64,000 nucleotides of DNA from Candidatus Eiseniibacteriota bacterium. Its GTDB lineage: Bacteria; Eisenbacteria; RBG-16-71-46; CAIMUX01; VGJL01. The position numbers and the translations under genes are program-made. Below the pieces are notes generated by a model that ran no database searches, was not told the origin of the DNA, and saw only the letters and a program-made list of their open reading frames with translations. Shown piece after piece: positions 2,853 through 27,626 of the stretch; position 1 is the first letter of the stretch; every line of letters begins with the position of its first letter. The stretch spans positions 150,951 to 214,950 of the forward strand of contig JBHGAY010000003.1 in the NCBI GenBank assembly GCA_041946735.1, read 5' to 3'.

Positions 2853-3560
2853 ATGAGGGCGATCTTTCTTCTCGCTCTCGGGATCCTTGCTCTTCCCGCC
2901 ACGGCGTTCGCCTTCCCCGAATCGGCAGGATTCCTGTCCGACGTTCCCGTGAGCTTCCCGGACCCGCGCGAGGACATCTACTGCCAATTGCCGTCGGGCG
3001 GTTGGGGCGTGTACAACGCGTCGACCGCTTTCTCATCGGAGATGGCGGACGACATGCCCGCGAACCTGAGCGGCATCTACGTCGGGGGAGTTGCGGTGTG
3101 GGTGGGGGAATGGGGGGGCGTAGATTGGATGCCGTTTACCAGCTTGATCGTCAACATCTACGACGACACCTGTCCTCCACCCCAGGATCCCGTCTTCAGT
3201 GTCGCCGTCCCGTATGACGAGCTGAACGCCATCCAAGTCTATGCGGGAAACTGGTACGTGTACCAGTGCCAGGCCGATGTCTTGGCGCCGATTACGATCG
3301 ATGACGCGACGTCGATCGGCTTCGTCGTTGATCAGGACTGGGGACAGAACCCACCCTATTGCGGCATGGTCATTACCGATGGGGTCCTCTACGGATGCGA
3401 GCTGTACTGGGACGCCGAGTTCTGGGGTTATTCCCGTTGGATTCCGGGCTCGCAATACTTCGGCATTGCCGTAGATCTCGCCTGGTGCCTGGTCCATGGG
3501 ATAGGACCGACCTCGACCGTGGAGACGCACTGGGGCTCGATCCGAGGACTCTTCCGATAG
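2853..3560 (+). CDS. Secreted hypothetical protein with C-terminal WGxIRxxFR tail
   Basis: AGGAGG RBS before ATG 2853; signal peptide MRAIFLLALGILALPATAFA; ends PTSTVETHWGSIRGLFR. Confidence 0.85.
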   Translation: MRAIFLLALGILALPATAFAFPESAGFLSDVPVSFPDPREDIYCQLPSGGWGVYNASTAFSSEMADDMPANLSGIYVGGVAVWVGEWGGVDWMPFTSLIVNIYDDTCPPPQDPVFSVAVPYDELNAIQVYAGNWYVYQCQADVLAPITIDDATSIGFVVDQDWGQNPPYCGMVITDGVLYGCELYWDAEFWGYSRWIPGSQYFGIAVDLAWCLVHGIGPTSTVETHWGSIRGLFR

Positions 3561-3594
3561 CAGTGCTCCCCGCTGTCGGTCGCGCTTCCGATTT

Positions 3595-3634
3595 CGAGAA
3601 CTCCGCCGGATGCTTCCCGCCGGCGGAGTTCTCG
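3595..3634. terminator. Perfect 15-bp inverted repeat between convergent genes, probable terminator hairpin
   Basis: CGAGAACTCCGCCGG, 10-nt loop, CCGGCGGAGTTCTCG; lies between stops at 3560 (+) and 3678 (-). U-tracts are weak. Confidence 0.6.
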
Positions 3635-3677
3635 TTCCGGATCGCCCGGCCCATTGCCTGACCGAGATCGGCCCTGC

Positions 3678-5159
3678 CTACCGAATGCGGATCAGCCGGC
3701 CGGTGCCGGTTGCACCGTCGAGACGATAGAAGTAGAAGCCGGTGCCCAGGGCATCGCCTGCGTCGGTCTTCCCGTCCCAGCGGATCTCGCCGGCCCCGCC
3801 GCCGATCGGCAGCGATCGCACGATCCGCCCGGCCACGTCGAAGATCCGCAGGCTTCCGCTAGCGCCACGCGGGATCTGGAACGCCACTTGATTCGTGAAC
3901 GGATTCGGCGCGCAGAGAATGCTCGTCGCGGCGCCGGGTCCCAAGTCCTCGACCCCGGCCGCCGACGCGATCCCTTGCGCGGAATAGACGCCCTGCATGA
4001 ACGCACTCTCGCGGTTATCGAGCCAGGCCACGTCGAGGTTGCAGATCGCGTCGACGGTGATCACCGGTTGAAGGGCGTCCGACTGGCCGCTCGTGATCGA
4101 CTCGGCCTGACCGAAGTAGATCCCATGAATGTTCATGTATCGGATGACGTTTCCTTCCGGCATGTACTCCCGCCACACGACGTGGACGTCGGCAGGGCCT
4201 TCGCCACAACGGCTGGTGGCCAGATGCGCGCCGTCCGATCCGTCGAAGGCGAGTTGGGTGAGTCCCTGCCATCCGGTGGCGCCGAGCTTGGAGTAGCAGA
4301 CTCGATCCTGATTGCCGAATTCACGGACCATTACGGCGTGCACGCCACCCGTAAGGCTCACGGCGATGTCCGGATGTCGGACCGGCTCGGCTTCGTCTCC
4401 GATCACAACGGCGGTCGACCAGACACCTGCGACGCGCTGGCGATGATACACCTGATCGGCGCCGCTCTCGTTGTCCTGCCAGAGGACGTGAACGTCACCG
4501 TTGGGGGCGACGGCGATGGCCGGCTCCTGGGCGGAATCAATGCCTTCGGTCAGCGGCTCCTGAGGCGACCAGACGGCGCCGTCCCAGTGCGAGTAGTAGA
4601 TGTTGGAGAAGGTAGGCGGGGGATAGAAGTCGCCTTGCTGCCATACGAGGTGCACGGTCCCATCCGGGTCAGCGGCCAGGCGCGGATGGTCGGCCGTGCG
4701 GCCATTGTAGTCGTTGATCCGCTCGATGGGCGTCCACTCGCCGGACTCGAATCGTCGGTAGAAGATTCCGTCCATGCCGCTGGCCCAATCCGACCAGACG
4801 ACATGGACCCGTCCTTCCCGATCGACGGCGACCGCTGGATACGAGGTTCCGTCGGAGTCGGAGAGCTGCACGACCGGGTCCCAGTCGTCTCCGTGCCCCG
4901 AGCGGTAGAAGACCTGATCCCCCAGGTCCTCGCCGATCTGCTCGGACCACACGATGTGCACCTTCGAATCGGGTCCCGTCGCAATGGCGGGACCGGTGAG
5001 GGACCACATGGGGAAGGAGCTGATCTTGACGTCCTCCTGCCACTCGACCGCGACGGCGGAACCGGGGTGAGTGGCGGGAAGGACGCAGAGGAAGCCAAGA
5101 GCGATTGCGACCGTCGAGCAACCGGTCCGATGGCGAAACGAGGAACGTCGCGGTCTCAT
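3678..5159 (-). CDS. Secreted beta-propeller-type repeat protein with C-terminal FlgD-Ig/T9SS-like domain
   Basis: Signal peptide; about 7 repeats of P.IA.D..G.VH.VW....IYY; C-terminus APNPF...LRIFDVAGRIVRSL...WDGKTDAG...GFYFYRL. Confidence 0.85.
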   Translation of the reverse strand: MRPRRSSFRHRTGCSTVAIALGFLCVLPATHPGSAVAVEWQEDVKISSFPMWSLTGPAIATGPDSKVHIVWSEQIGEDLGDQVFYRSGHGDDWDPVVQLSDSDGTSYPAVAVDREGRVHVVWSDWASGMDGIFYRRFESGEWTPIERINDYNGRTADHPRLAADPDGTVHLVWQQGDFYPPPTFSNIYYSHWDGAVWSPQEPLTEGIDSAQEPAIAVAPNGDVHVLWQDNESGADQVYHRQRVAGVWSTAVVIGDEAEPVRHPDIAVSLTGGVHAVMVREFGNQDRVCYSKLGATGWQGLTQLAFDGSDGAHLATSRCGEGPADVHVVWREYMPEGNVIRYMNIHGIYFGQAESITSGQSDALQPVITVDAICNLDVAWLDNRESAFMQGVYSAQGIASAAGVEDLGPGAATSILCAPNPFTNQVAFQIPRGASGSLRIFDVAGRIVRSLPIGGGAGEIRWDGKTDAGDALGTGFYFYRLDGATGTGRLIRIR

Positions 5160-5363
5160 CGGGAACCTCCGTGTCTCTCGCTGGGAAACAGAACCGCTGA
5201 ACTCGACCGCCTAATAGGATACGCCGGTCGGGGAAAGTCGGCTAGGGGAGTGGACCGATGCGGTGGGCGCGGCGCTCGACCGGGGCCGTGCCCACCGAAG
5301 CAACGCTCTCCGCCTGAAGCACGAGAGCCTACCTCAGACACACACCGGAGGACGGCCGCGACG

Positions 5364-5990
5364 CTACTTCTTCCAGAAGACTCCGCTATCCTCCATCCCC
5401 CGGACGAAGCCGACAGCGAAGTCGTCGATCGCGTCCAGCACGGAGTTGGGATCCACGGTCCGCGATTGACCGCTCCAGATCAGCCGCTCGTCTTTCATGG
5501 AGTAGACGTTCGTCTCCACCGTCGCGACCGGATACTGGCGCAGGTAGCCAGGCGTCGTGACCAAGGTGTAGGAGGTGTAGTAGTAGGGGAAGAAGCCGAA
5601 GTAGCTCGGCCCTGGCTTGTAGTAACTCGTTCCAGGGACGTATTCGACTTCTTCAGAGAGCCCCAGCACGCGGGTGACCGCGACGAGGTCGATGCCGTTC
5701 TCTTCGCAGTACTTCCGGCCGCCCGTCGTGTCGAGAGGGGCGCCCGCCGGAATGAACGTGGACCCCATGATCGCCACGATGTTGCGCCTCTTCAGTTCGT
5801 TGGCCATCGCGCTCTCGAATACCCGGACATTGCTCTCGTTCTCACCCAATCCAATGACAAGCATCTTCTGCTCGGGTGCGGCTCGGTATTCGGGATCACT
5901 CCACACACCGATCATCTGTGTCGAGCTGACGCAGGATAGTTGGAGTGCCACGAACAGCAGGGCAGCGCCCGCGATCCCCGTACGTTTCAT
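5364..5990 (-). CDS. Putative lipoprotein
   Basis: Start at ATG 5990 (GGAGAAGAG upstream); MKRTGIAGAALLFVALQLSC with lipobox-like Cys; Tyr/Gly-rich segment followed by VETNVY...LIWSG. Confidence 0.8.
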   Translation of the reverse strand: MKRTGIAGAALLFVALQLSCVSSTQMIGVWSDPEYRAAPEQKMLVIGLGENESNVRVFESAMANELKRRNIVAIMGSTFIPAGAPLDTTGGRKYCEENGIDLVAVTRVLGLSEEVEYVPGTSYYKPGPSYFGFFPYYYTSYTLVTTPGYLRQYPVATVETNVYSMKDERLIWSGQSRTVDPNSVLDAIDDFAVGFVRGMEDSGVFWKK

Positions 5991-6487
5991 GTCTCTTCTC
6001 CAATCGATCGGCTCCCCGTTTCCGACGGAGGGGCCTTGGTTCGGGAACATCGGATGCGCGCCCTGGCGACCGATCCACATCCCGGTGTGCCTGTCTCCCC
6101 CGCGTTGCCCGGTAGTACGAGCCGGACGGATGCTGTCACCTGGCATCAGGACTGTCAAGCGGATGGGCATCCTCGACGATGGGCTGCGACCGGCGGATCG
6201 AAGCAGCAACCGCGTCCCGGCCTGGTCGTTCGTCGGGAAAGACATGGGCCGAGAAATCATGGAAAGCGTAGCGATGGCGGAGGCTGTTGCAGGCGCGGGC
6301 AGGCGTCTCGCTCACGTTTGGTGTCGACAACCGGCAGGTCCCAAACTAAGATGCTTTACGTTTGGAACGACCGGGGCCCCCGCGAGCTTCGGCTCCGAGA
6401 GCGCTTCCCGCCGACTGCGATTCGTTCGCGTCCCGGTGTAGTCCTGTCGGATGGGCGAGGAGCGAGCTTATTGGAGGGGGGTTCGCA

Positions 6488-7162
6488 ATGATCAGGCCTC
6501 TGCTGCTTTTCGTTGCTTGCATCTTCGTCGGGATCCTCGCCGGGGATGCCGTGGCTCAATCGGACTTGCTTGGACCGAGCAGACGGAGCGGATACTGGGA
6601 CTTCGGTGTGCAGACGCGCTACGTCGGATCCCACGACTACGACTCGAAGGGCGGTTCCCATCTCTCTCTCGAGGACGATCTCGGCTGGGGCTTCAATGTC
6701 GGCTATAGCTTCAAGGAGTGGCTAAACGTCGGCGCCCTGTTCTCGTGGAGAACGGTTGACTACAGCGCGAAAGTCGTGAATTCGGAGAAACCGGACGACA
6801 TCATCCGCTACAGCAGCTGGCTCGATACCGCGACGATCGCGGTCAACGCGACGTGGAACGTGCTGCCGAATCGATTGACACCTTACGTCCAGGGAGCCGG
6901 AGGTGTCGCGATGGTCGATACCAACATTCCCGCGTCGATCGACATGGATTGCTGGTACGACCCCTGGTGGGGGTATACGTGTCTCGGCTACGCGTCCACC
7001 TATGGCGACGACGGATCGTCTTTCAGTGTGGGCGCGGGAATGAGTTGGCAGCTCACGAAGGCCTTTTTCGTTCGGGCAGGATACGAGAAGACTTGGATCG
7101 ACGTGGGCCCGGCGGACGACTTCGACATCATTCGCCTGGACCTTGCGTTCCTCTATCGATAG
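6488..7162 (+). CDS. Outer-membrane beta-barrel protein (OmpW/OmpA-TM-like)
   Basis: GGAGG RBS; signal peptide; amphipathic strands (LGWGFNVGYSF, TPYVQGAGG, FSVGAGMSW); terminal aromatic strand RLDLAFLYR. Confidence 0.8.
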   Translation: MIRPLLLFVACIFVGILAGDAVAQSDLLGPSRRSGYWDFGVQTRYVGSHDYDSKGGSHLSLEDDLGWGFNVGYSFKEWLNVGALFSWRTVDYSAKVVNSEKPDDIIRYSSWLDTATIAVNATWNVLPNRLTPYVQGAGGVAMVDTNIPASIDMDCWYDPWWGYTCLGYASTYGDDGSSFSVGAGMSWQLTKAFFVRAGYEKTWIDVGPADDFDIIRLDLAFLYR

Positions 7163-7768
7163 CTCGGAGCCGGTGGCGCGCGGCGGCCCGCGGCGCCGCC
7201 CCCGATCGATCAGGCGGGCACGGCCCGGTCGAAGGCACCAAGGCGGCGCCGGATGGCCTGGCGGGTACGGACGTGGCGCTCGACTATCTCCTGTGCCGTG
7301 GACATATCCCACCATCTAGGTCCCGCGTTCCTCGATAGGGGAATTTGTGCGCCAATGTTCTGCCTCGTATCCCGCGACCGACCAACCCATCAACCAGCAT
7401 GTTCGGATAGCCCGCGGGGGTCGCGAAGGCGTACAATACGGCGGCACCGATAGAGGCGACATCCTTTCCGTCTGCCAATAGGCGACTTACGAGGAGGGGC
7501 GTCATGGGCCTGATCGGAGGATGGGCTTCCTCTCGCAGTCGCGCTGGCGCATCCTTTGGCCCCGTGCTTCTCCCCGGTCAAGGCCACGAGCCAGCGCGTT
7601 CCTCAGGCTGTTCGGCGTTCTTCCCGAGGCCCCTCGCGGTGGGGATCCCCCGGGTCGCTCCCCTCCCATCCCTGCACGGTGCTCGTCGAAAGGCCCGCGC
7701 GGTCGCCGCTGTCTTCCTTCGGAAGAAACCCCTCCGCCACGAATTTCGAGGACCTAGGAGGTGATTTC

Positions 7769-8950
7769 GTGAGAACCAGCCGGAGAGCTCTCGGAGCCCT
7801 GCCCCTATTGCGCGTCGCGACGATCCTCGCGCTCGGCGTCTCCGCTTGCAGCAGCGGAGAAAAGGGACCGCCGAGCGGGGCGCCTCAGGTGAAGGTCGTC
7901 GCTGCCACGCAGAAAGACGTGCCGATCAGCAAGGAGTGGGTCGGAGAGGTGAAAGGCGCGGTCGACATCGAAGTCCGAGCCAATGTCGATGGCTGGCTGC
8001 AGGGCATGCACTTCAAAGAGGGCACCGAGGTCGAGAAAGGGACCCTTCTCTACACGATCGACACCAGCGAGCTGGAGCAGGCCGTGGCCACGGCCAACGC
8101 GAAGCTCGCCCAGGCGAAGACGCTCTTCGCCAAGGCGGAGTCCGACCTCAACCGGTACCGGCCACTCGCGGCGGCGGGCGCTGTCAGCCAGCGAGACCTC
8201 GAATCCGCCCTCGCGGAATACGGGGCTCGGAAGAGCGAGGTCGATGCTGCGGAAGCTTCGCTGCGATTGTCCGAGATCAACTTCGGATATGCGAGGATCA
8301 CCGCTCCGATCGATGGCCTGATCGGAATGTCAGCCGCGCGCGTCGGAGACTTCGTCGGACGTCCGCCCAATCCTCTCATCCTGAACACCATCTCGCGGAT
8401 CGACTCGGTGGACGTTCGCTTTTCCATCACGGAGCAGGAGTACCTCGCGCTTGCCCGAAAGCTTCAAGCCTCGACGGGCGCGGACCGCGGCCGGCCGAGA
8501 GATCGTTTCGTCTTCCAGCTGATTCTCGCGGACGGTTCCCGGTACCCCTACACGGGAACGGTAAGCACTGCGCAGCGCGAGATCGACCCGGCGACCGGGA
8601 CTCTCCAGTTCGAGGCGTCCTTCCCCAACCCGGATCGCCTCCTCCGTCCCGGGCAGTTTGCGCGGATCGTGTCGGTCGTGGACGTCCGCAAGGGAGCGGT
8701 CGTCGTTCCGTCGCTGGCGGTCATGGAGCTCCAGGGCCAGTACCTGGTCCTTACGGTTGGGCCGGACAGCAAGGTGGGTGTGCGGCGGATCGAGGCGGGG
8801 CCATCGGCCGGCGCCTTCACCGTGATCGATCGGGGGATCGCGCCAGGCGAGAAGGTCATCGTCGAAGGCATGCAGAGGGTGCGGCCCGATATGGCCGTCC
8901 AGGCGATCGAGGTCCCCCCCGATTCCATCATCGCGAAGGGAAGGCGCTGA
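7769..8950 (+). CDS. RND efflux periplasmic adaptor (AcrA/MexA family)
   Basis: AGGAGG RBS before GTG 7769; lipobox VSAC; EVRANVDG, ITAPIDG, IDPATGT and LRPGQF motifs. Confidence 0.95.
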   Translation: MRTSRRALGALPLLRVATILALGVSACSSGEKGPPSGAPQVKVVAATQKDVPISKEWVGEVKGAVDIEVRANVDGWLQGMHFKEGTEVEKGTLLYTIDTSELEQAVATANAKLAQAKTLFAKAESDLNRYRPLAAAGAVSQRDLESALAEYGARKSEVDAAEASLRLSEINFGYARITAPIDGLIGMSAARVGDFVGRPPNPLILNTISRIDSVDVRFSITEQEYLALARKLQASTGADRGRPRDRFVFQLILADGSRYPYTGTVSTAQREIDPATGTLQFEASFPNPDRLLRPGQFARIVSVVDVRKGAVVVPSLAVMELQGQYLVLTVGPDSKVGVRRIEAGPSAGAFTVIDRGIAPGEKVIVEGMQRVRPDMAVQAIEVPPDSIIAKGRR

Positions 8951-8953
8951 GCC

Positions 8954-13602: not shown

Positions 13603-13850
13603 GCCAAGAGTCGTCGCGGCGCTCTTGCCAGGCGCGAGGCAGAACCACCCAGAACCGGCCTCGCTCTCGCCGACGGAGAAGCTCCTTCGATTCGCCCCTC
13701 CACGGAGCCGCTCTGCGAGCCCCCAAAGAAACCCTGGCGGCTTCCGGCCGCTCTTTTCGTACTGAGACTGTCCATCCCGCGAGGCGCCGCCCTGCAGGAG
13801 TCCCGCGGGCATCTCCCCTGGTTCTGGGATCGGCCGCCGAAGGAGTTCGC

Positions 13851-14603
13851 ATGCACGTTCGCTGGATCGTCCTCCCGGTGGCCACTCTCGCTCTGTTCCT
13901 CCAGGCCGCCCCGAGCGTGGCGGAAATCGATCCCTCCAGGTTCCGGCAAGGGTCACTCTCCGGGGTGACCGACGGCCTCCACACCATCTTCACGGTGCCC
14001 CAAGGACAAACCTTCGTGCTCACGGACCTAACGTTCGACGCCAACCCGGGATCGAACGAAAACTTGCACATCATGCTGCAGCTGAAGCGGGCGGGCGAAG
14101 TCTCCTGGAATGCGACCAGCGACATCTACACGCCTCAGGGCCAAGCGCATCAGCTGATGCCGGTAGAGGCGCACTGGATTACCGGTCTCGCCTGGGGCCC
14201 GGGGGAGCCCGTGGCATTGGGCGTCAACGCGCTCGACCACGATTGGATCTGCTCCTGGTCCGGGTACCTCGTGCCGACGTCGCTCTCCGCCTTGGAAGAC
14301 TCCGGGCCCGACGTCCCGAACGCGCGGGAATCGCTTGTTCGCCTACGGGCGAATCCCTTCCGCGCGAGTACCGAGATCGAGTTTCACATTCCGCGGTCCG
14401 GCAAGATCGCGCTGCGCCTCTATGGTCCCGATGGACGTCTCGTCCGCAGACTCGTGGAGGAGGACGCCCAACCGGGCCAAAGGTCGATTGCATGGAACGG
14501 AGAGGACGACAAGGGCCGGGACCTGGCGTCCGGAACCTACTTCTACGAGTTCGCGCTGGACGGAGACACCATCGATTCCGGCAAGGCGGTCCTTCTGAGA
14601 TAG
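13851..14603 (+). CDS. Secreted protein with C-terminal FlgD-Ig/T9SS-like domain
   Basis: AAGGAG RBS before ATG 13851; signal peptide; C-terminus ANPF...LYGPDGRLVRRL...WNGEDDKGRDLASGTYFY. Confidence 0.85.
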   Translation: MHVRWIVLPVATLALFLQAAPSVAEIDPSRFRQGSLSGVTDGLHTIFTVPQGQTFVLTDLTFDANPGSNENLHIMLQLKRAGEVSWNATSDIYTPQGQAHQLMPVEAHWITGLAWGPGEPVALGVNALDHDWICSWSGYLVPTSLSALEDSGPDVPNARESLVRLRANPFRASTEIEFHIPRSGKIALRLYGPDGRLVRRLVEEDAQPGQRSIAWNGEDDKGRDLASGTYFYEFALDGDTIDSGKAVLLR

Positions 14604-14832
14604 CTCGGCTTGCTGAGGATGGCCGGCTCGATCGCCACTTGGATGGTCGAATGCGAAGCCTCCACCCATGGGCATTTCTGCTACCATTCCCTGCGCCTGG
14701 GAGACAGCCGGTCGGCGTGAGGCCGCAAACCCGCGGTGGAACGAGCAGCTCCCAAGCCCAGCTTGTCCTTCTCGCCGGCCGCCGGCGCTAGGAACGCCAC
14801 ACTCCCTGGCGTACGAGAGGAGGATTCGAGCC

Positions 14833-15558
14833 ATGTTTCTCGCATGCGCAACCGCACGCCTCCTGATCCCGTGCCTCGCTCTTCTCCTGGCAACGTATGC
14901 AAACGCAGAAGTGTTCCTCGAGAACTTCGACGACGATGCGATCGATCCGGCTCTCTGGACTGCCGTCGTCTATGGGAACGGTCCTCAGATCGCAGAGACG
15001 AATCATCAGCTCGAGATCTCAGTGCCCGGTTGGTCCTACGGACAGGACTTCGGTGCCAAGCTGTCTACGCGCTTCCTCTTTCACGGCGACTTCGACGTGC
15101 AGGTCGACTTTCGCCTTCTGGTCTGGCCCTTCGGCAACGGAGTCCGGACCGCGCTCGGCCTCGATCATGGCTATCTCTTTCCGCCCGGGGTCGAGCGGAT
15201 CAGCTTCGGGCAGGACGACTATCCGTGGGAGCCGCGGGAGTCGTATCTCACCGATCTGGACGGCACCGTCTGCGGGGTCACGGCGACCGACGACATGACA
15301 GGCACGCTGCGGCTGGTCCGGGCTGGCGCCGAGCAGACCGGCTACTACCGGTCCGGCGGTTGGGTCGAGATCTGCGCAGCGCCTGCGCCGACCGGAGACA
15401 TGCCTGTTCAGATCTCGGTATTCACTGCGTACCAGTTCATGGGCTGGGACGTGAGCATGGCCTTCGACAACTTCCAGGTAAACAGCGGCGAACTGGTGGA
15501 CTTCCCCGTGGCGACGCTGGCAACGACTTGGGGCGCTGTTCGGGGGCTGTACCGGTAG
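14833..15558 (+). CDS. Secreted hypothetical protein (beta-sandwich-like) with C-terminal TWGxVRxxYR tail
   Basis: GAGGAGG RBS; signal peptide; GDFDVQVDF and FDNF strands; ends PVATLATTWGAVRGLYR. Confidence 0.82.
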   Translation: MFLACATARLLIPCLALLLATYANAEVFLENFDDDAIDPALWTAVVYGNGPQIAETNHQLEISVPGWSYGQDFGAKLSTRFLFHGDFDVQVDFRLLVWPFGNGVRTALGLDHGYLFPPGVERISFGQDDYPWEPRESYLTDLDGTVCGVTATDDMTGTLRLVRAGAEQTGYYRSGGWVEICAAPAPTGDMPVQISVFTAYQFMGWDVSMAFDNFQVNSGELVDFPVATLATTWGAVRGLYR

Positions 15559-15738
15559 CGGGCGCGGCGCGGCGTGCTTCCAACCCGCTCCGCCCATCCT
15601 TCGCGCACCGCCGCTGACACACCGCGCTGGCGCGTACGCGAGGCGCACCGGACGATGCTGCCCGCCCCCGGGGTGAGGGCGGGCCGCACGTCACAGAGCG
15701 GCGGAGTCAGCGGAGCGGTTCGCGCACCCGCCCGCCAC

Positions 15739-17985
15739 TCACCGCACGATCACTAGACGCGCTACTTCGGTCCTGTCCGGACCGGACACCCGGAGGAAGT
15801 AGGCTCCCGCAGCCACCGGACGGCAGCGATCGTCACGGCCATCCCAGAGGAAGCGGTGGTCGCCAGCTCGAAGAACCGTCGAGGACAGCTCACGGACGCG
15901 GCGGCCTGCTACATCGTGCACTGTTACGAGGACGTTGCCATCGATCATCGTATGGAAGCGGAGGAGCGTCTCACTCGTTCCTGGATTCGGAGATAGCGTC
16001 AGCCTGGCAGCGGAGGAGCCCCTGTTCTCCTCGAAGGAAACCGCTGAAGATGCGTCGCACTGAACGGGCAGGATGGAGAGGCCGGCATCGCCATCGGCGA
16101 CGTAGGCGTAGCCGGCCGCGACCACCACGCCGTTCGTCGATTGAGGCCTGTCGATCCCCCCGACGATCCGCAGATCCGTAGGATCGGTCACGTCGATGAC
16201 CTGGAGACCGCAGGAGGCGTCGGCGACGTAGGCGCAAGCACCCGAGACGGCCACGCCTCGAGCCCCTCCGGGCGTCGGCGCGCTTCCTAGAATCTGGGGA
16301 GTGAAGGGAGTCGTGACGTTGATCACCTGCAGGCCTCCGGTGGCATCCGCGACGTAGGCTCTTCCCTCAGCGACCTCCACGTCTTGTGCCGCCCCGGGGG
16401 TGTCCGCGCTGCCGATGACGTGCGGGCTCGAGGGATCCGAGATATCGACGACCAGCAGACCGTAAGAAGAATCGGCAATGTAAGCGTGGCCGTTCTCGAC
16501 CGCCACACCAAGCGCAAGGCCCGGCGTGTCGACGCTCCCCACGATCTGGAGGTCCGCGAGATCCGCGAGATCGATCACCTGAAGGCCGGCATCGCCGTCC
16601 GCAACGTAGGCATAGGTGCCGGCGATGGCGACATCCTGTGCAGTCCCCGGCGTATTGACGGTCCCAACCAGAGCGGGCAGATACGGATCGCCGACATCGA
16701 TCACCTGCAGGCCGTAACTATCGTCCGCCAGATATGCATGGCTCCCCGAGATGTCGACGTTCCAGGAGAGTCCTGGAGTATCGTAGCCGCCCACCAACTG
16801 GGGATCTTCGGGGTTCGACACGTCGATCATCTTGAGACCTCGGGTCTCGTCGGCGACATACGCCACCATGCCGGAAACGCTCACACCACAAGCCCGACCG
16901 GGTGTGTCCCGGACGCCGAGGACCTGCGGGATGGCCGGGGGGACGATGTCGAGGATCTGCAGGCCGTAGTACTCGTTAGCAATCAGGGCGTATTCGCCCG
17001 AAACCGTCACGCCGTATGCGTCCCCCAGAGCATCTACGCTTCCGAGGATCGCGGGACTCATCGGGTCGGTGACATCGATCACTTGGGCGCCCGAGATGCC
17101 ATCCGCGACGATCACCGTGTTTCCAGATACATCCACGCCGGTGGCCACGCCCGGCGTGTCCACGCTGCCAAGGATCTGAGGGTTCGTGGGATCTGTAATG
17201 TCGGCCACTTCCAGGCCGCGATTATCGTCGGCGAGGTAGGCGTAGGTTCCCGAAACGGCCACGCTCTGAACCACTCCCGGTGTGTCCAAGCTGCCGACGA
17301 TCTGCGGATCCGAAGGATCCGAGATGTCAACGACCTGAAGTCCGGATGCCGTGTCTGAGACATAGGCGTAGTCGCCGGCCACAACGACGTCCCACGCTCG
17401 GGACGGTGTGTCGACGCTGCCCAGGATCTGGGGATCAGTCGGGGTCGAGATGTCGATGACCTTGAGCCCTGCCGCATCGTCCGCGACGTAGGCGTAGTTG
17501 CCGCGGACGGCTACCGCGTACGCCTTCGATGTGGGAACGTGCGAGACGATATGAGGGCTCGCAGGATTCGTTACGTCGATCACCTGGAGACCTTGAGTTT
17601 CGTCCGCGAGATAGGCGTAGTTGCCCGACGCCGCGACTCCCAGGCCGTAGCCCGGCGTGTTCACGCTACCCACGATATGGGGGTCTCGGCGATTCGAGAT
17701 GTCGATCACCTCAAGGCCGAAGCTGTCATCGGCCACGTAGGCGTAGTCGCCAGATATGGCGACCCGCCAGGACTTCCCCGGGGTATCCACGCCGCCGCAC
17801 CAATGCACGTAGTCGCCGTAATCGATGCAGTCCGCGACGGCAACCCCGGCGCTACCGAGCCCGCCGCTGCTCACGGCGATGACGATCGCTACGAGCGCCA
17901 TGCGCCCATGCCTTCCCCGGGCTGTACCGCTTTGCGCACTACGAAGACCAGAGCGCGAATACCACGTTCGGATAAGCTCGTTCAT
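15739..17985 (-). CDS. LVIVD-repeat beta-propeller protein with C-terminal FlgD-Ig/T9SS-like domain
   Basis: 14 repeats of about 42 aa (YAYVAD...GLQVIDVS.P..P.IVGSVDTPG); C-terminus SPNP...HDVAGRRVREL...WDGRDD...GAYFLR. Start 17985 chosen for its AGGAGG RBS; 18003 is possible. Confidence 0.92.
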   Translation of the reverse strand: MNELIRTWYSRSGLRSAQSGTARGRHGRMALVAIVIAVSSGGLGSAGVAVADCIDYGDYVHWCGGVDTPGKSWRVAISGDYAYVADDSFGLEVIDISNRRDPHIVGSVNTPGYGLGVAASGNYAYLADETQGLQVIDVTNPASPHIVSHVPTSKAYAVAVRGNYAYVADDAAGLKVIDISTPTDPQILGSVDTPSRAWDVVVAGDYAYVSDTASGLQVVDISDPSDPQIVGSLDTPGVVQSVAVSGTYAYLADDNRGLEVADITDPTNPQILGSVDTPGVATGVDVSGNTVIVADGISGAQVIDVTDPMSPAILGSVDALGDAYGVTVSGEYALIANEYYGLQILDIVPPAIPQVLGVRDTPGRACGVSVSGMVAYVADETRGLKMIDVSNPEDPQLVGGYDTPGLSWNVDISGSHAYLADDSYGLQVIDVGDPYLPALVGTVNTPGTAQDVAIAGTYAYVADGDAGLQVIDLADLADLQIVGSVDTPGLALGVAVENGHAYIADSSYGLLVVDISDPSSPHVIGSADTPGAAQDVEVAEGRAYVADATGGLQVINVTTPFTPQILGSAPTPGGARGVAVSGACAYVADASCGLQVIDVTDPTDLRIVGGIDRPQSTNGVVVAAGYAYVADGDAGLSILPVQCDASSAVSFEENRGSSAARLTLSPNPGTSETLLRFHTMIDGNVLVTVHDVAGRRVRELSSTVLRAGDHRFLWDGRDDRCRPVAAGAYFLRVSGPDRTEVARLVIVR

Positions 17986-18418
17986 CTTCCTAGCCTCCTG
18001 CATCCTCGGACACTTCGAGACCGTGGAAAGCTGAAGCTGAGCGCGGGCACGACTCGGGGCTCGGTCCTTATTCCCTCACCAGATCGCCTGAAGTCCGGAG
18101 ACCGGATGGCCCTAGTCGAGGGCCGCGCCGTTAGGCCGTTCAGGAATCCCAGGCATGACGCAACAGAGACGAGACAAGGGCCAGGACGGCGCCAAGTAGA
18201 CTAGCACCAGGTGGCGCCGGGATCCAGAGTGAGATTGTGATGGTGATGCATCGGGTCATTTGTGACACGTTCTGCGAGGCGAGGGAATCCAGGCCGTGGC
18301 CGATCGACCAGGAACTGCTTTTTGGGAGGTGGGCAGTGTCCGGCTCTGCTTTGCGGGCGGAGTTCCCCCAGCGGCGCACTTAGAACCGGCCATGGACCGG
18401 ACGAAAGGGGAAACCGGA

Positions 18419-18460
18419 GACGCCGCCGCCTCGGATCGGAATCTCCGGGGCGGCGGCGTC
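18419..18460 (-). terminator. 17-bp inverted repeat (one mismatch) downstream of the 18507-19133 gene
   Basis: GACGCCGCCGCCTCGGA...TCCGGGGCGGCGGCGTC, followed on the minus strand by a pyrimidine run (GTTTCCCCTTTC). Confidence 0.5.
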
Positions 18461-18506
18461 AGTAGGTTGGCCGCCAGGTCATGGACGCGGCGCGCGGCCG
18501 CGCGAG

Positions 18507-19133
18507 CTAGCGATACATGTGCTTGACTTTTCCCCACGTGGACTGGTCGACCGCCGTCGGCTCGTGGGAGCCGAAGAACTTCGCCATCCAGTAGAAGCTC
18601 ATTCCAGGACCCTCCCAAAGGGAGCAATCCCAACTCCAGCAGTGGGGGATGATGTCGCCGTAGAGCGCGAACGAGCTGACGCTCTCGACGACCACGCGGT
18701 AGTTGATGTGATACGTCTGACCGGCCTGTACGTATACCGCCGGGGCGAGATCGACGCCCTGCCAACCGATAGCCTCCACCTGCTGGAATTCCCCGCTCGC
18801 GAGGATGGCTCCGGTCGGACAGCCTGAGCCGTCGTCCTCGCGGATCTCCACCGACGCCGGCCCCGCGATCTCACCGGCCATGAACTCGACGCGCTCGAGA
18901 TAGTAGCTCTGACCAGCGACGTACGTGGGTCCCTGGCACTGCGCGCCGTAATGCCACGTTCCATCGAGGGGAAGATCGACATTCCATCCTTCGATGAAAT
19001 CCCTGCGCCCCTCGATCGTGATCCCGAGTGGATCGCCCGACTGGATCGATCCGTTCAGAACGCCATCTGCCGAGGCGGTCGCGGCCAAGGTCGCGACGAA
19101 AAGCGTAGCCAACACGATGAGCGAAAACCTCAT
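18507..19133 (-). CDS. Secreted hypothetical protein with C-terminal TWGKVKxxYR tail
   Basis: AAGGAGG RBS before ATG 19133; signal peptide MRFSLIVLATLFVATLAATASA; ends EPTAVDQSTWGKVKHMYR. Confidence 0.87.
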   Translation of the reverse strand: MRFSLIVLATLFVATLAATASADGVLNGSIQSGDPLGITIEGRRDFIEGWNVDLPLDGTWHYGAQCQGPTYVAGQSYYLERVEFMAGEIAGPASVEIREDDGSGCPTGAILASGEFQQVEAIGWQGVDLAPAVYVQAGQTYHINYRVVVESVSSFALYGDIIPHCWSWDCSLWEGPGMSFYWMAKFFGSHEPTAVDQSTWGKVKHMYR

Positions 19134-19300
19134 GGTGACCTCCTTCGCTGGACCTTCAGGCATGCAAGGAATCCTGCGCCAGCAAGGATACATCATTTCG
19201 GGGTCCGCCGCAGCCGATTTCGCGGCAATTGCCTGCGATTGTGGACAGCCGGAATTGGCAAGAGCACGAGAGGGCCGCTGCCCGAGCCCCGCCACCCTTG

Positions 19301-22045
19301 TCAAGGGATCCGGCGGAAGCGTACGACGCGCCCGGGCATCGAGACCTCGACTCCCGGTTCCGCCCCGTCGAGGTCGAAGCGCGCCGTCACGCCTTCGGCC
19401 CCCTGAAGCCGGAAGCGGAGGCCCTCCTCCCACAGCAGAGCAGCCGGCGCATCCCCTTCGCGATACACACTCAGAGTGGAATCCGGCGCGAAGCCAACGC
19501 GGAAGGACCATCCGTCCGGCGCCGCGTAGCTCCCGGTGAGCCGGGCGAGAGCCGGCGCGCCCGGACCGGCGGCGGCGCGCGGGGCCGGCCGCACCCGGGG
19601 TGCCGCGAGCCCGGCGGTCGCCTCGGCATGCGCGCCATCCGCATCGGGAAGCCGGAGCGCCTCGGCGTACCAGCGAAGCGCCTCGTCCCGCCGTCCTGCT
19701 GCATCGCACGAATGCCCCAAGCGCAGCGACGCGATCGTGACTGCAGGATCGAGCGCCATCCAGGGGCGGCGCCCCTCGACCGCGTCGCGCCAGCACTCCT
19801 CTGCGGCCGCGAAGTCCCCCTGCGCCTCCAGGCACGCACCTCGTTCGACTCGCTCGCTCGCCGTTTTGCCGGCCGCCGTACGGAACCGATCGAGACGCGC
19901 GAGGGCAGAGTCGATACGCCCCGCCGCGCGCAGGGCCGCGGCGTTTTCGAGCTCGCCCAGATGCCGGCGCTCTTGGGTCCATCTCAAGATCTTCAGGCGT
20001 GGATCGAACACTACCGTGTCGGGCTTCTCCTCCACTCGGATGGAGAACGGCGTCTCTGCCGCGTCCACCCGGACCCGCTCGAAACGCGCCTCGTTGCCGC
20101 GGACGATCGCGATCTCGGCGTCCACCGGGAAGACCGTGCCCGCCTGCTTCACGGCTCCGCGGACGATCCATCCGCCCTTCCCGTCCGTCACCCGCTCCGT
20201 CCGGGCATCCATCGCGAACTCCGGCGCTCCGCTCTGCTCAAACCAGGCGGCGAAAAAGGGGCGAAGATCCTGGCCGCTCGCGTCCTCCCATTTCCTGCGC
20301 AGATCCTCGAGCGAGATCGTCCGGCGCGCGAAGTCGCGCACCGCCGCACGCAGGCCGGCCGTGAACGCCGCCTCGCCGATCCGCTCGCGCAGCATTTCGT
20401 AGACGAACTGTCCCTTCCGGTCGGCCAGGGAATGCAGCGTCATCTGATCCCTCGTCCCCGGCCGCGGCGCGGCGGCGATCGGCAGGTCCAGCTCCGGCCT
20501 CCCCGCGAAGCTCGTGAAGTACTCGCGCGCGGATTGCCGGTAGGCCGGGACGCCGTTGTTCAGGAAGACAAGCGCGGCTTCGTCCCCCTCGATTGCGCGG
20601 ATCGCGCGAACCGCCATCATCTGCGCGAGCCCCTCGGACACGACGGCGCCGGCGCTGCCCACCAGATTGCCCCACCAACTGTGGCCCAGCTCATGCGCGA
20701 GAAGGGGCAGCGGGACCCGGTCGTCCGGCAGCATACCTGTCGGAAAGAGGTTCATTCCCTGCTCGCTCGATCCGCCGAGCGAGCCGACGCGCGTCGCGGG
20801 GATCTCGACGATCGCATAGCCGTCGTAGGGGTACATTTCGTGCGTCTCGCGCTCGACCGCGAGGATCCGCGCGAGCATGGGAAGATAGAGGTCGGCCTTC
20901 GCCTGCCCCCCCTCCAGCAAGTGGACTGCAACCGGCGTCCCTGTGACCTGCTCCTCCCGGTCGAACGTGCGCGCGGCCGCGAAGGAGAAGTCGCTCGGGA
21001 CGGAGACTTTGAACCGCTGCTCCTCGCGAGCGTCGCCGAGCGCCGGCGTCTTGCCCGCAGGCCGGCCACTGCAGGCGACCGTGAGTCCCGCGGGCACCTC
21101 GAAGCGGATCGTCCCGCGCGCCTTCGAACCATCTCCCAAGAGCCGCGGATACCAGTTCGTTACCCAGCTCGCGAAGGAGCCCTCCGGCGAGATAGCGACC
21201 TGCGAGTAGCCGAACTCCTTCGTCTCGTTGAACAAACTTCCCGCGTAACGCACCGTGAACTGGACCGTATCCCCATCCTTGGCCGCCTTCGGCAGGGTCA
21301 CGAAGAGCGCATCGGCGCGCCGCTCGAACGCAAGCTCTTCACCATCCTTCCCCGTGACCTTGGAAACGGCGAGGCCGCGATTCAAGGAAAGGACGGCGAC
21401 GTCGAGATCCGGTTCGAGTGCGCGGAGCTTGATTGCCGCCTCCGCTTCCATCCGTCCCTCTTCCGGAAAGAGGGCCACAGCGAGATCGGTCTTCTCGGCG
21501 CGCGCGACCTCGCGAGTCTCCTTCTCCGCGATGATCCAGACGCGGCAGTCGCGCGAACGCAGGTCGATCCGGCTCCACGCGGGGATCACATGCTCCCTCC
21601 CGTTCTGGCGGTAGAGGACCCATTGCATCACGAGCGCTCGCCAGGGGTTCGGCGGCTTTCCGGTGATCCCGGCCAGCCGGTGCCCGCACTCCAGGCTGTC
21701 CAATGCGAAGAGCCCTTGCAGATCGTCGCGGGTCTTTTGCCTCAGCGACGCGTCCGTATCGTCGTAGAGATCGAGGACGGCGGCGGTGTCCTTCGCCGCC
21801 ATCCCCTCGTCGCGCCGCGTCAAGATCCGTTCGACGATCTCGTGATCGGTCAGCGGAGCGTACCCGTCGGCGGCCCGCGCCTCCTGCGGGCGCACGCCGA
21901 TGAGCGCCGCGGCGCACACCGTCGCGCACGTCGCTGCGACGAGGAGTGCCGGGATCGTGAACCGCGCGAATCTCCGGCCAGCCCTAGCGCGCCCGCCAGC
22001 CGGCCTGCAACCCGATCGTGTCGAGATCCCGAGGATCGAAGACAT
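19301..22045 (-). CDS. Exported M1-family (gluzincin) aminopeptidase-like protein with TPR-like repeats
   Basis: AHELGHSWWG...SEGLA zinc motif; M1 N-domain motifs (VRYAG, NWYP, YPYDGY); DPRLKILR then helical TPR-like repeats. Start codon uncertain (overlaps gntR). Confidence 0.8.
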   Translation of the reverse strand: MSSILGISTRSGCRPAGGRARAGRRFARFTIPALLVAATCATVCAAALIGVRPQEARAADGYAPLTDHEIVERILTRRDEGMAAKDTAAVLDLYDDTDASLRQKTRDDLQGLFALDSLECGHRLAGITGKPPNPWRALVMQWVLYRQNGREHVIPAWSRIDLRSRDCRVWIIAEKETREVARAEKTDLAVALFPEEGRMEAEAAIKLRALEPDLDVAVLSLNRGLAVSKVTGKDGEELAFERRADALFVTLPKAAKDGDTVQFTVRYAGSLFNETKEFGYSQVAISPEGSFASWVTNWYPRLLGDGSKARGTIRFEVPAGLTVACSGRPAGKTPALGDAREEQRFKVSVPSDFSFAAARTFDREEQVTGTPVAVHLLEGGQAKADLYLPMLARILAVERETHEMYPYDGYAIVEIPATRVGSLGGSSEQGMNLFPTGMLPDDRVPLPLLAHELGHSWWGNLVGSAGAVVSEGLAQMMAVRAIRAIEGDEAALVFLNNGVPAYRQSAREYFTSFAGRPELDLPIAAAPRPGTRDQMTLHSLADRKGQFVYEMLRERIGEAAFTAGLRAAVRDFARRTISLEDLRRKWEDASGQDLRPFFAAWFEQSGAPEFAMDARTERVTDGKGGWIVRGAVKQAGTVFPVDAEIAIVRGNEARFERVRVDAAETPFSIRVEEKPDTVVFDPRLKILRWTQERRHLGELENAAALRAAGRIDSALARLDRFRTAAGKTASERVERGACLEAQGDFAAAEECWRDAVEGRRPWMALDPAVTIASLRLGHSCDAAGRRDEALRWYAEALRLPDADGAHAEATAGLAAPRVRPAPRAAAGPGAPALARLTGSYAAPDGWSFRVGFAPDSTLSVYREGDAPAALLWEEGLRFRLQGAEGVTARFDLDGAEPGVEVSMPGRVVRFRRIP

Positions 22046-22943
22046 ACCGCACCTCGTGCACGCGCGGATCTCGCCGCGCCGTTTCGGACAACCTCCCCCA
22101 TTCGCGCGGGGGGAAGAGGATCGAATTTCTGCTTCGCGTTCTCGCGAGCCACGTCTCGGGGCTCTTCACGATCACAGTCCGCAGGCGGAACTCGCTCTCG
22201 GGCAGGATCCGCGAGAGGTCCGCCGCGATGTTCCGCGCCATGGATTCGACGCGGTCACACAGTAGGACGGAGATGCGACCGGCCAGCCCGCGCGCCGCAT
22301 GCCGCAATCGGTCGCGCAGCGCCGGATCGGGGACGATGGCGGCGAAGCGGACTTCCGCCAGCCGCGCGCCGAGGAGCCGCCGCAGGTCGTTGTAGTGGAA
22401 CCAGGTCGCGACGAGGGGACCCTCGGGCGGTGTGGAGGCCGGATCGAGCGGCCAGGGAAGCGCTTTGACGTCCCAATGCGCCTCGAGCTGGGCGGCGAGA
22501 TCCAGGCACTGCGTCCGGCTGCACTCGATGACGTGAAGACGCGGTGTGCCGCCGCGCGGTGGCCGGGTCGCGCGATGCGCCTCGAGGAGCGCGATCAGCT
22601 CTTGCGCGCCGAGACCGTGCTCCTGCCGTGCGCGCAATAGGATTTCCTCGACGAACCTCGCCCGTCCGGGAGTGCCGCGCCGCCCAGGCAGCTCCGCCCC
22701 CGCCTGATCGGGGAGCACGCGGGTCCCGTGCGTCCCTTCTGTCATCACCATCCCGAGCCGCTCGAGCTCGCCGTAGGCGCGTCGGACCGTGTGGAGGTTC
22801 ACGCCCCAGAGGGCCGCCGCCTGGCGAAGCGGAGGCAGGCACACGCCCGCGGCGATCGCGCCGGTCGCGATCCGGTAGCGAATCGCTTCGGAGAGCTGGT
22901 GGTAGAGGGGGATGGGGCTGCGGGGGTCGAGGTTCAGGCGCAT
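21984..22943 (-). CDS. GntR-family transcriptional regulator (YtrA-like wHTH with long C-terminal domain)
   Basis: SPIPLYHQL...LPPLRQAA...VNLHTVRRAYGELE...GT wHTH pattern. Confidence 0.9.
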   Translation of the reverse strand: MRLNLDPRSPIPLYHQLSEAIRYRIATGAIAAGVCLPPLRQAAALWGVNLHTVRRAYGELERLGMVMTEGTHGTRVLPDQAGAELPGRRGTPGRARFVEEILLRARQEHGLGAQELIALLEAHRATRPPRGGTPRLHVIECSRTQCLDLAAQLEAHWDVKALPWPLDPASTPPEGPLVATWFHYNDLRRLLGARLAEVRFAAIVPDPALRDRLRHAARGLAGRISVLLCDRVESMARNIAADLSRILPESEFRLRTVIVKSPETWLARTRSRNSILFPPREWGRLSETARRDPRVHEVRYVFDPRDLDTIGLQAGWRAR

Positions 22944-22949
22944 GCGCGC

Positions 22950-22978
22950 ATGTTATAGAACACTAGAACACGCGTCAA
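22950..22978 (-). promoter_or_regulatory. Sigma-70-like promoter (TTGACG-N17-TAACAT) overlapping a GntR/YtrA-type palindrome
   Basis: Minus strand TTGACG (22978-22973) and TAACAT (22955-22950); palindrome TGTTATAG-aaca-CTAGAACA at 22951-22970; ATG follows the -10 box after 6 nt with no SD. Confidence 0.7.
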
Positions 22979-23273
22979 GCGCGCATCGCGGCGCGGGGTC
23001 GGGCGGGCGAAAGACGCATCTCCCCGCGGCCCGGCGCCGGTGACGGAGACGAGCGGTGCGCGGGGTGGCTCCATGGGCACCTGCCGTGAACATGCGGACT
23101 CCCCGCGCACACCGAGGATCGTTCGCAATTCCCCGCAGTTATCTGCGCAATGCGGCCGGCGGCGCAAGATCGCGCAGTCGGCATCGCCCTCATGCTTGTA
23201 TCGTATGCAGGATTCACGCGCGTCGGTCTCAGGCAAGCGCGGCAGAGAGGTCGCGGAGCTGAAGGAGGCGGTC

Positions 23274-23768
23274 ATGGCATCGAAGAACCTGTCGAAGATC
23301 TATCCGTTTCTCTGGTACGCCACCGAGGCCGAGGAAGCGGCGAGATTCTACGCGTCGATCTTCCCGGACTCCCACGTCGATCGAGTGACGCCGCTGATGG
23401 CTGACACCCCCAGCGGTCCTCCGGGTTCGGTCAAGGTCGTGGACTTCACGCTCTTCGGTCAGCGATTCCAGGCGATGAGCGCTGGACCTCATCATGAGTT
23501 CAACGATGCGATCTCCCTCACGGTGGAGTGCGAGGACCAGGCGGAAATCGATCGGTACTGGGACGCGCTCCTCCAGGGAGGTGGCCAACCGCAAGCGTGC
23601 GGATGGCTGATCGACCGGTTCGGTGTGCGCTGGCAGATCGTCCCAGCGATCATGGGAAAGCTGATGGCCGACGACGACCCGGCGCGCGCGAAGAGGGCGG
23701 CGGAGGCCATGTTGCAGATGATCAAGTTCGACGTGGCGGCGCTCGAGAAGGCCGCGAGGCAGGCATGA
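23274..23768 (+). CDS. VOC/PhnB-like protein (3-demethylubiquinone-9 3-methyltransferase family)
   Basis: AAGGAGG RBS; KIYPFLWY, AEEAARFYAS, QAEIDRYWDAL and CGWLIDRFGVRWQIVP motifs. Confidence 0.92.
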   Translation: MASKNLSKIYPFLWYATEAEEAARFYASIFPDSHVDRVTPLMADTPSGPPGSVKVVDFTLFGQRFQAMSAGPHHEFNDAISLTVECEDQAEIDRYWDALLQGGGQPQACGWLIDRFGVRWQIVPAIMGKLMADDDPARAKRAAEAMLQMIKFDVAALEKAARQA

Positions 23769-23808
23769 TCGCATCGGGATCCGATCCGATGGCCCCTGCT
23801 AGGGCGGC

Positions 23809-24456
23809 ATGAGCCGGCTCCGCTTCGGCATCACGATGTCAGCCGACGGCTACGTCGCCGGCCCTCGCCAGAGCTTGCAGAATCCGCTGGGCGAGGGTGG
23901 CGAGAAGCTTCATGAGTGGGTGGTCGGGCTGCGGACGTTCCTCGCGATCCATGGCAAGGAAGGCGGAGCGACCGGTCCGGACGACGAGGTGGTCGCCGAG
24001 TCCGTCCAGAACATCGGCGCGACGATCATGGGCCGGCAGATGTTCGGCGGGGGCGATGGCCCGTGGGGGAGCGATCCTCCTTGGCGCGGATGGTGGGGCG
24101 ACGACCCGCCGTTCCACCATCCGGTCTTCGTCCTCACGCACCATGAGCGCGAACCGCTGCCGATGAAGGGCGGCACGACCTTCTACTTCGTCACGGACGG
24201 CATTCGCGCGGCGCTCGATATGGCGAGGAAGGCCGCGAAGGGCAGGGACGTGAACCTGGCAGGCGGCGCCGACGCCGCTCAGCAATACCTGCGCGCCGGC
24301 CTGATCGACGAGATGGAGATCCACGTAGTCCCCTTGATGCTGGGGGACGGCGCGCGGCTCTTCGAGAACACGGAGGGCCGCCAGGCCGAGTACGAATGCG
24401 TCCGGGTCCTCGGCTCTCCATCCGTGAGCCACTTCAAGTACCGGCGAAAGCCCTAG
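23809..24456 (+). CDS. Dihydrofolate reductase-like protein (RibD C-terminal domain)
   Basis: MSADGYVAG, IMGRQMF, PVFVLTH and GGA...YLRAGLIDE.....VP.MLGDG.RLF motifs. Confidence 0.92.
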   Translation: MSRLRFGITMSADGYVAGPRQSLQNPLGEGGEKLHEWVVGLRTFLAIHGKEGGATGPDDEVVAESVQNIGATIMGRQMFGGGDGPWGSDPPWRGWWGDDPPFHHPVFVLTHHEREPLPMKGGTTFYFVTDGIRAALDMARKAAKGRDVNLAGGADAAQQYLRAGLIDEMEIHVVPLMLGDGARLFENTEGRQAEYECVRVLGSPSVSHFKYRRKP

Positions 24457-24555
24457 ATCGAAGATGAAGGGCGCGATGCCGGTGACCTGCTTGTCGGAGA
24501 AGCAGACGCTTCCGAGTCGATCTCGAGTCAGGCTCCCCTCTCTCGACTTGTCGAC

Positions 24556-25260
24556 CTATCGGTATTGGGCCCTGATCGCCGACCAGCTTACGATCCGCAC
24601 AGAAGACGGCTCGATGGGATTGGTGACAACCACCTCGAACTGGCCGATGTTGTTGGACCATTCGCAACTGTCCATCGGGCCCAGATAGAGGCGGGTGGCT
24701 CCCTCGGGCACGATGATCTGTTGCTGGACGCCGTTCGATGTCAGGCCGTCGCCGATGAAGAACACCTGCTTCAACAACGGTGACAGCGTCAGGTAGTCGC
24801 GACTCTCTGGTGTGCCAAAATCCAAGCCCTCAGGAGCCGGAGTGTGATCCGGTTGATCGTCATTCAAGAAGACGCCGATGCAGCTCGATATCGGGCCGTT
24901 GAAGGTCGAAATCCCATTGTCCTCCCCATCCTCGTGAGGCGTCACATACCCGCCGTCGGGATGTTCCAGAGGATAATACGGATCTTGTGCCGTCCCGCCC
25001 GTCACGTTGAAGCTCATCGCCACGTCGGCCTCGAGGTGGAGGCCGGCCACCACCTCTGGGGACTCGGACGGCGAAGAATCGCAAAGGATGCCGCCGTAAC
25101 AACAACTCGCGGTGGCCCCGTCAGGCATTCCAGCCAGCCAGGGGTCCGAATGGCCCGGGATCACGACCTCGACTACCTCGGCTCTCACTGGTGTCCAGCC
25201 AGATGCCATCAGCAAAGCGGTGAGGAGAGGAATCGACCACAGGACAGCGCACGGTCTCAT
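24556..25260 (-). CDS. Secreted hypothetical protein with C-terminal SWSxIRxxYR tail
   Basis: AAAGGA RBS; signal peptide; SDPWLAG, LKQVFFIGDG and VPEGATRLYLG domain; ends EPSSVRIVSWSAIRAQYR. Confidence 0.85.
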   Translation of the reverse strand: MRPCAVLWSIPLLTALLMASGWTPVRAEVVEVVIPGHSDPWLAGMPDGATASCCYGGILCDSSPSESPEVVAGLHLEADVAMSFNVTGGTAQDPYYPLEHPDGGYVTPHEDGEDNGISTFNGPISSCIGVFLNDDQPDHTPAPEGLDFGTPESRDYLTLSPLLKQVFFIGDGLTSNGVQQQIIVPEGATRLYLGPMDSCEWSNNIGQFEVVVTNPIEPSSVRIVSWSAIRAQYR

Positions 25261-26134: not shown

Positions 26135-26135
26135 C

Positions 26136-27617: not shown

Positions 27618-27626
27618 GCTTCTGCC

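Follow-up and report, generated by a model that had tools for sequence, protein, structure and literature searches.

What directs small signal-peptide-bearing proteins to their destination when their bodies have nothing in common and only their last residues agree? The question is raised by a 64,000-nucleotide stretch of contig JBHGAY010000003.1 from a Candidatus Eiseniibacteriota bacterium (the whole stretch is called the window here), in which four proteins end in the same short C-terminal element, referred to below as the TWG tail. An initial annotation of the window had taken this tail for a sorting signal read by a wholly uncharacterised export or attachment system. That is not the likeliest reading: the evidence favours a known machinery, that of type IX secretion (T9SS), since the tail is nested within genomes that encode SprA and PorU, its head is PorU-like, and it occurs fused in front of T9SS C-terminal domains (CTDs). 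We propose, with somewhat better than even confidence, that the tail would be a short signal which PorU cuts and which addresses small cargo to a T9SS without the GldLM/KN motor.

A terminal and uncatalogued tail

The four open reading frames (ORFs) and their tails exist as first annotated, two of them on the minus strand (Table 1); in 4/4 a Pro lies at position -17, a Trp at -9 and an Arg is the last residue. Each has a signal-peptide-like N-terminus, as judged from its sequence, and the four bodies are as dissimilar as had been stated, with no BLASTP match among them. Over the whole genome (4.89 Mb, 72 contigs, 54,109 stop-to-stop ORFs) the tail follows the 17-residue consensus P-[TV]-A-[TV]-x-x-[TS]-[TS]-W-G-x-[VIL]-[KR]-x-L-[YF]-R-stop. 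The simple pattern W[GS]x[IVL][RK]xx[YF] has 87 matches in these ORFs, with the Trp exactly at -9 in 71; 80 of the 87 lie at most 13 residues from the stop and 7 lie elsewhere. A position matrix was trained on the 71 terminal copies, and the genome-wide count that had been suggested as a check gave 84 matches scoring above 18, all 84 of them terminal; above 15 there are 86 matches, 85 of which are terminal. The initial annotation would have lost its footing had the motif been as frequent internally or on cytoplasmic proteins; there is no internal copy above a score of 18 in the ORFs of the genome, and a crude signal-peptide test is passed by 58/79 tail proteins versus 422/2580 other soluble proteins (CTD proteins, 148/250).

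The tail has no existing model in Pfam or NCBIfam: 39 tails gave 0/39 matches at E values up to 10, and the four window proteins are not matched by TIGR04183, PF18962 or PF13860. An ESM Atlas search with the tail returned a single 29-aa cluster at 0.78, which is uninformative. No published work on the motif was found in a search that left subscription journals and supplements outside, and neither PMC5317091 nor PMC10515386 has a passage relevant to it. The tail is real and uncatalogued.

Third codon positions in the tail vary freely among synonymous codons, and the constraint therefore acts on the protein and not on the DNA. The stop codon is TAG in 52/85 tail ORFs versus 33% of all called genes, an enrichment that would suit a recoding signal; low-GC genomes, on the other hand, end the tail in TAA, and the lengths of the reading frame beyond the stop are scattered. 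A DNA repeat or stop read-through as the cause of the tail was rejected on the codon variation and these scattered read-through lengths.

The initial annotation had also described a short amphipathic helix without a transmembrane (TM) segment. The second part holds throughout, since 0/79 tail proteins have a TM helix past the signal region. On the first part, the AlphaFold model makes the tail a helix with a predicted local distance difference test score (pLDDT) of about 68, but the hydrophobic moment is no lower at strand periodicity (0.58-0.60 at 170-180 degrees) than at helical periodicity (0.49 at 110 degrees). The final Arg is free, basic and strongly conserved.

Proteins that carry the tail

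The working set comprised 85 tail ORFs at a matrix cut of 17.5, of which 79 are called genes under a hexamer model. With alternative starts allowed, 67/79 tail proteins pass the signal-peptide test, and none of the 79 has a lipobox. They are small (median 245 aa versus 682 aa for CTD proteins), acidic and rich in Cys (3.9% versus 1.1-1.2%). Grouped by similarity, the 85 proteins form 35 sets, of which the largest has 41 members, so that the carriers are less unrelated over the genome than the four window proteins imply. Pfam domains found among the 38 tail proteins scanned are CHRD, PPC, beta-helix, Spondin_N and DUF7901. Tail protein 1 has three paralogs in the genome, every one tail-bearing.

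Exchange with known sorting signals

The genome of the window encodes PorU and SprA over the NCBIfam cut-offs and 12 PorV-like genes by a local profile, 7/12 of which, when scanned, pass NF033709 alone, plus one OmpA fusion. It also encodes 256 proteins with a terminal CTD of FlgD-Ig or type-A-like kind, and 0/256 of these bear the tail as well. The same bodies do occur with either end: 35/84 tail bodies have a CTD-bearing paralog, and 22/84 align up to a junction beyond which the tail follows in one paralog and the CTD in the other. The CTD partners at these 22 junctions come to 6 proteins from about four domain families, which points to few independent swaps. Among the matches listed for tail protein 4, 119 relatives comprise 26 with the tail, 3 with a T9SS CTD and 20 with other ends, the rest ending in PEP-CTERM-like sequences (52 under a strict pattern, about 70 under a looser one). 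For tail protein 2, the 150 best relatives comprise 4 with the tail, 4 with CTD-like, 12 with PEP-CTERM-like and 130 with other ends. Tail protein 3 keeps the tail in all 12 relatives found, and a choice-of-anchor V domain bears the tail in genome G019. The proposal that the tail is a modular C-terminal address signal is thus borne out by its exchange with both T9SS CTDs and PEP-CTERM on the same bodies.

The tail shares with T9SS type A CTDs (TIGR04183 and PF18962, and here the FlgD_ig-like PF13860), which are carried by PorV and cut by PorU, its position, its bodies, the N-terminal signal peptide, a similar small-residue/hydrophobic motif ahead of it that may be a cut site and, in nearly all genomes tested, an occurrence restricted to genomes with SprA and PorU. 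It differs from them in its length (17 residues versus about 70-90), in giving no profile match, in its smaller cargo and in not being found with GldM or GldN. With PEP-CTERM/exosortase signals (TIGR02595, PF07589, PF09721) it has in common that it is a short C-terminal tag with a basic end, swapped among the same bodies; unlike them it has no TM helix and no TIGR02595 match. Besides the T9SS and the tail, this genome encodes two exosortases (G000:C67:99864-100616 and C3:9466-10221) and about five PEP-CTERM proteins, which form a set separate from the tail proteins.

A metagenome scan for the tail core with a CTD motif after it yielded 121 loci and 39 in-frame matches, among which 12 clear cases have A/S-V...W-G-x-[IVLM]-K directly before a CTD; 4/4 fused proteins tested pass TIGR04183. 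In a model of the fused form built from 11 sequences the motif is of low confidence (pLDDT <50) and unpacked against the CTD. These fusions bear on an alternative in which the tail is a T9SS-associated docking peptide and not an export signal: its core would bind PorU, the attachment complex or a CTD partner, and the protein would leave with that partner or by another route, such as a secretin, to be docked or cut at the surface. In the 12 fused proteins the motif lies between the cut site and a CTD that already holds the export signal, and it is unpacked as a linear binding motif would be; CTD genes adjoin tail genes more often than they adjoin other genes (19/79 versus 279/2580), and secretins are encoded in the genome. 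Against this, tail genes have no fixed linked partner gene, the tail stands one for one in place of the CTD at the junction, as is expected of an alternative signal, and the tail genome G275 has no secretin match. We regard a docking role as rather unlikely.

The head of the tail and PorU cut sites

The proposed cut would fall in the head of the tail, between -16 and -15. The residues [GSA][VLIT] stand at -15/-14 in 62/85 tails versus 6.6% of 3,419 other C-termini, and the stricter [GSA][VLI] in 28/85 versus 5.0%. The pattern P[TSVA][GAS][VIT], which was written after both sets had been seen, occurs in 37/205 CTD linkers of the same genome versus 3 in an upstream control (shuffles: mean 7.75, maximum 16). 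Two earlier reports give T9SS cut sites as PT/GI by consensus (PMC11969387) and as X/(GSA)(VLI); the site measured for HBP35 is EPT/ATE (PMC4560394). At the sequence level, the tail head resembles these published PorU sites.

Precedents exist for small T9SS signals and for several signals served by one translocon. Short CTDs of Prevotella intermedia (PMC11969387) have 43-55 aa and three beta-strands and keep motifs B, D and E; they are a precedent for reducing a T9SS signal in size with a cut site of the PT/GI type, but the tail is a third as long and unrelated in sequence. For Hbp35, the last 22 residues are reported to be all that is required for secretion of green fluorescent protein (GFP). 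In Flavobacterium (PMC10994853), one translocon serves several signal classes via different carriers, and GldLM energy is needed for cargo release. The type B CTD (TIGR04131) with its alternative carrier barrels is one such precedent; unlike the tail it is a folded domain, and the tail has no carrier gene that tracks it or lies beside it.

Distribution and a single-copy FN3-tail protein

Within the phylum of the window the tail profile matches 113/121 genomes and every one of the 63 genera; scored copies reach 73 per genome, and one family has 0-4 copies. One tail protein, of about 210-235 aa, persists even in family f8, which is poor in tails (G000:C12:58068-58691; L149, L151, L153, L154, L045) and may be the core tail carrier of the phylum. 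A strict DNA pattern run over GTDB gave at least 124 loci, all but about four of which are, by eye, true terminal tails; titles among the listed loci include Eisenbacteria, Krumholzibacteria, Latescibacterota, Gemmatimonadota, Zixiibacteriota, Ignavibacteria, Kapaibacterium, Calditrichaceae, KSB1 and Kryptoniota.

For Ignavibacteria and the four groups named after it, the protein that bears the tail is a conserved one of about 130 aa, and 29/34 loci examined cluster together. This protein consists of a signal peptide, an FN3 fold and then S-[GS]-V-K-R-T-W-G-S-I-K-A-M-F-R, and it is the only tail match in each of four such genomes. It has 4,185 relatives at an E value of 1e-10, which among the matches listed are all unnamed or hypothetical, one stray label excepted. 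In two T9SS cargo proteins from the window's genome, its FN3 domain is the one that directly precedes the CTD. Fold searches returned generic FN3 only, and PDB sequence searches gave nothing significant. A complex prediction of PorV with the FN3-tail protein of genome G121 scored 0.01, which gives no verdict and is counted neither way. BamP, considered as a possible identity for the FN3-tail protein, was ruled out: BamP consists of two domains and has a loop in BamA (PMC12611786).

The residues W, G, I, K, F and R are invariant in 45 aligned single-copy proteins, 25 of whose rows were first retrieved with that very pattern. This invariance speaks against the tail being a non-functional relic, a stub of a truncated CTD, even though the fused CTDs begin with a sequence similar to W-G-x-I-K...L-[YF]; a relic, or a DNA-level repeat or recoding signal of the kind considered above, is very improbable.

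Two further sequences were seen in these searches. A Bacteroidia-titled record (L081:1000-1530) encodes a 177-aa, membrane-anchored-looking protein with a TWG-like end, the only Bacteroidia-titled match not of the FN3 type among 80 records listed, and a 2410-aa ORF (L389, G239:C7; G290:C14) has an internal TWG-like stretch about 380 residues before its end, probably by chance.

Co-occurrence with SprA and PorU and lack of a GldM or GldN match

SprA is matched in 114/121 genomes of the window's phylum. The sample used to examine co-occurrence comprises 151 genomes of G121's phylum, which are related, so that kin are not independent: 55 have the FN3-tail gene, 120 have SprA and 37 have GldN. SprA is present in 55/55 tail genomes, and the FN3-tail gene in 0/31 genomes without SprA. 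GldN is matched in 0/55 tail genomes versus 37/65 other SprA genomes, and is absent from 83 of the 120 SprA genomes in all. In hand-picked sets, PorU was matched in 38/38 tail genomes and missed in 4/20 others, and GldM was matched in 0/27 tail genomes (the window's own included) versus 21/31 others; the genome of the window thus has SprA, PorU and PorV and no GldM match. For the motor and hub in tail genomes the result is accordingly GldM 0/27 and GldN 0/55, with no search made for GldK or GldL. Given that neither GldM nor GldN is matched in the tail genomes tested, the T9SS served would be a variant without the GldLM motor and the GldKN hub.

The same data bear on a T9SS-independent role, in which the basic aromatic end would be an envelope anchor or address that binds the membrane, lipopolysaccharide or peptidoglycan, or else a dedicated receptor or protease in the periplasm, and the association with SprA would reflect shared ancestry only. 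Such a role would suit a basic, amphipathic tail that ends in a conserved free Arg; the bodies also accept PEP-CTERM, which belongs to an unrelated system, a separate exosortase system is present in the genome, and the co-occurrence is phylogenetically confounded. It leaves unexplained the PorU-like head in register, the fusions before CTDs and the lack of the tail gene from every one of the 31 SprA-less genomes. Signals of the rhombosortase and exosortase types need a TM segment, which none of the 79 tail proteins has. We consider a T9SS-independent anchor improbable.

A 1111-aa unannotated protein (L302:4204-7536; G000:C11:85200-88535, minus strand) has a short SprA-like stretch and clusters with PorV-family, BamA-like and SurA-like genes. 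Single-copy relatives are present in 103/151 genomes, by eye all SprA-positive, and their Atlas clusters are all hypothetical; the protein is a possible unrecognised T9SS component. As a reader of the tail it was rejected, since it tracks SprA (103/151) and not the tail.

A proposed route and the evidence against it

If the tail is a T9SS signal, its path can be set out in four steps. The proteins would first be exported to the periplasm by Sec, as their signal-peptide-like N-termini suggest. The core W-G-x-[IV]-K-x-x-[YF]-R would then be bound by a carrier barrel or by SprA or PorU itself, and passage through SprA would follow, a step suggested by the nesting of the tail in SprA genomes. Finally, the tail would be cut at the head position given above, on the likeness to measured PorU sites, and the protein would be transferred to a surface glycan or released.

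Several observations weigh against this route. Among the 151 genomes, 28 have SprA, lack GldN and carry no tail, which means that a motor-less T9SS does not require it, and the presence and absence of the tail with SprA may reflect just two or three losses. SprA was not matched in five tail-bearing genomes of the window's phylum (G042, G065, G113, G116 and G119), which are fragmented (120-440 contigs, 87-94% complete). Five tail genomes carry unexpected titles; SprA passes the cut-off in three of them, is weakly matched in G128 (small) and is unmatched in G126. No recurring reader or processing gene was found among the neighbours of tail genes, which are housekeeping genes (34 small-tail loci, +/-1.5 kb; 111 neighbours in the window's genome), and a quick tree of 109 PorV paralogs from 16 genomes, with partial sets for some (2 each from G162 and G267, 8/12 from G288), has no clade that is in all tail genomes and absent elsewhere. 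Secretins, a possible other exit, are present in 4/5 tail genomes tested. The tail-head matrix is weakly enriched in CTD linkers (45/205 versus a shuffle mean of 34 and maximum of 48), and the tail has neither the beta-sandwich of a type A CTD nor its motifs B, D and E. Where the tail precedes a CTD, it cannot be the sole export signal and is maybe an accessory element.

G126, titled Acidobacteriota and holding four tails, was also considered as an outright counter-example and set aside: of 30 relatives, 28 have no match and 2 a weak one, and two of its four tail contigs encode CTD-type proteins. Its tails are probably mis-binned.

Gene context in the window

The tail genes and the CTD-bearing genes that lie beside them are collected in Table 1. 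Elsewhere in the window, positions 25619-36018 hold a hydrogenase and NADH-oxidising cluster with a HycI maturation protease, a Nuo51-like subunit and ferredoxin-rich subunits, and positions 47189-53297 hold, in a row, genes for a Ser/Thr kinase that has TPR repeats, for a small regulator-like protein and for T9SS type A cargo.

Table 1. Tail genes, tails and neighbouring CTD-bearing genes; positions are those of the window.
Feature	Position	Strand	Description
Tail protein 1	2853..3560	+	235 aa; signal-peptide-like N-terminus, acidic body, no Pfam match
Tail 1	3507..3560	+	17 codons + TAG
Context gene	3678..5009	-	Neighbour; ends in FlgD-Ig/type-A-like T9SS CTD
Context gene	13851..14603	+	CTD-bearing; directly upstream of tail gene 2
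Tail protein 2	14833..15558	+	241 aa; TWG tail
Tail 2	15505..15558	+	
Context gene	15739..17901	-	Lies between tail genes 2 and 3; LVIVD beta-propeller, ends in T9SS type A CTD (TIGR04183 over cut-off)
Tail protein 3	18507..19133	-	208 aa; DUF4082 (PF13313); TWG tail
Tail 3	18507..18560	-	
Tail protein 4	24556..25260	-	234 aa; TWG tail (W-S variant)
Tail 4	24556..24609	-	

Implications

A bolder form of the T9SS proposal, which we hold only tentatively and think rather doubtful, is that the tail would form a third class of T9SS signal, of peptide size, and would mark a motor-less T9SS of ancestral form in Eisenbacteria/Krumholzibacteria, Latescibacterota, Ignavibacteria and their neighbours. 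In that case 17 residues would suffice for export and covalent anchoring, and the FN3-tail protein would be a dedicated but so far unrecognised part or an obligate client of the system, perhaps in the release of cargo without GldLM energy. The single-copy carrier is present in records titled Melioribacter roseus and Rosettibacter primus (L124, L132), which makes the question testable in culturable bacteria.

Known T9SS signals are folded domains, and a 17-residue signal, if true, would add a signal class; genomes with SprA and PorU and without a detectable motor would then point to a different powering of export. Dozens of hypothetical proteins per genome, in several phyla, would be reannotated as surface cargo, and the tail itself would be a very small display tag.

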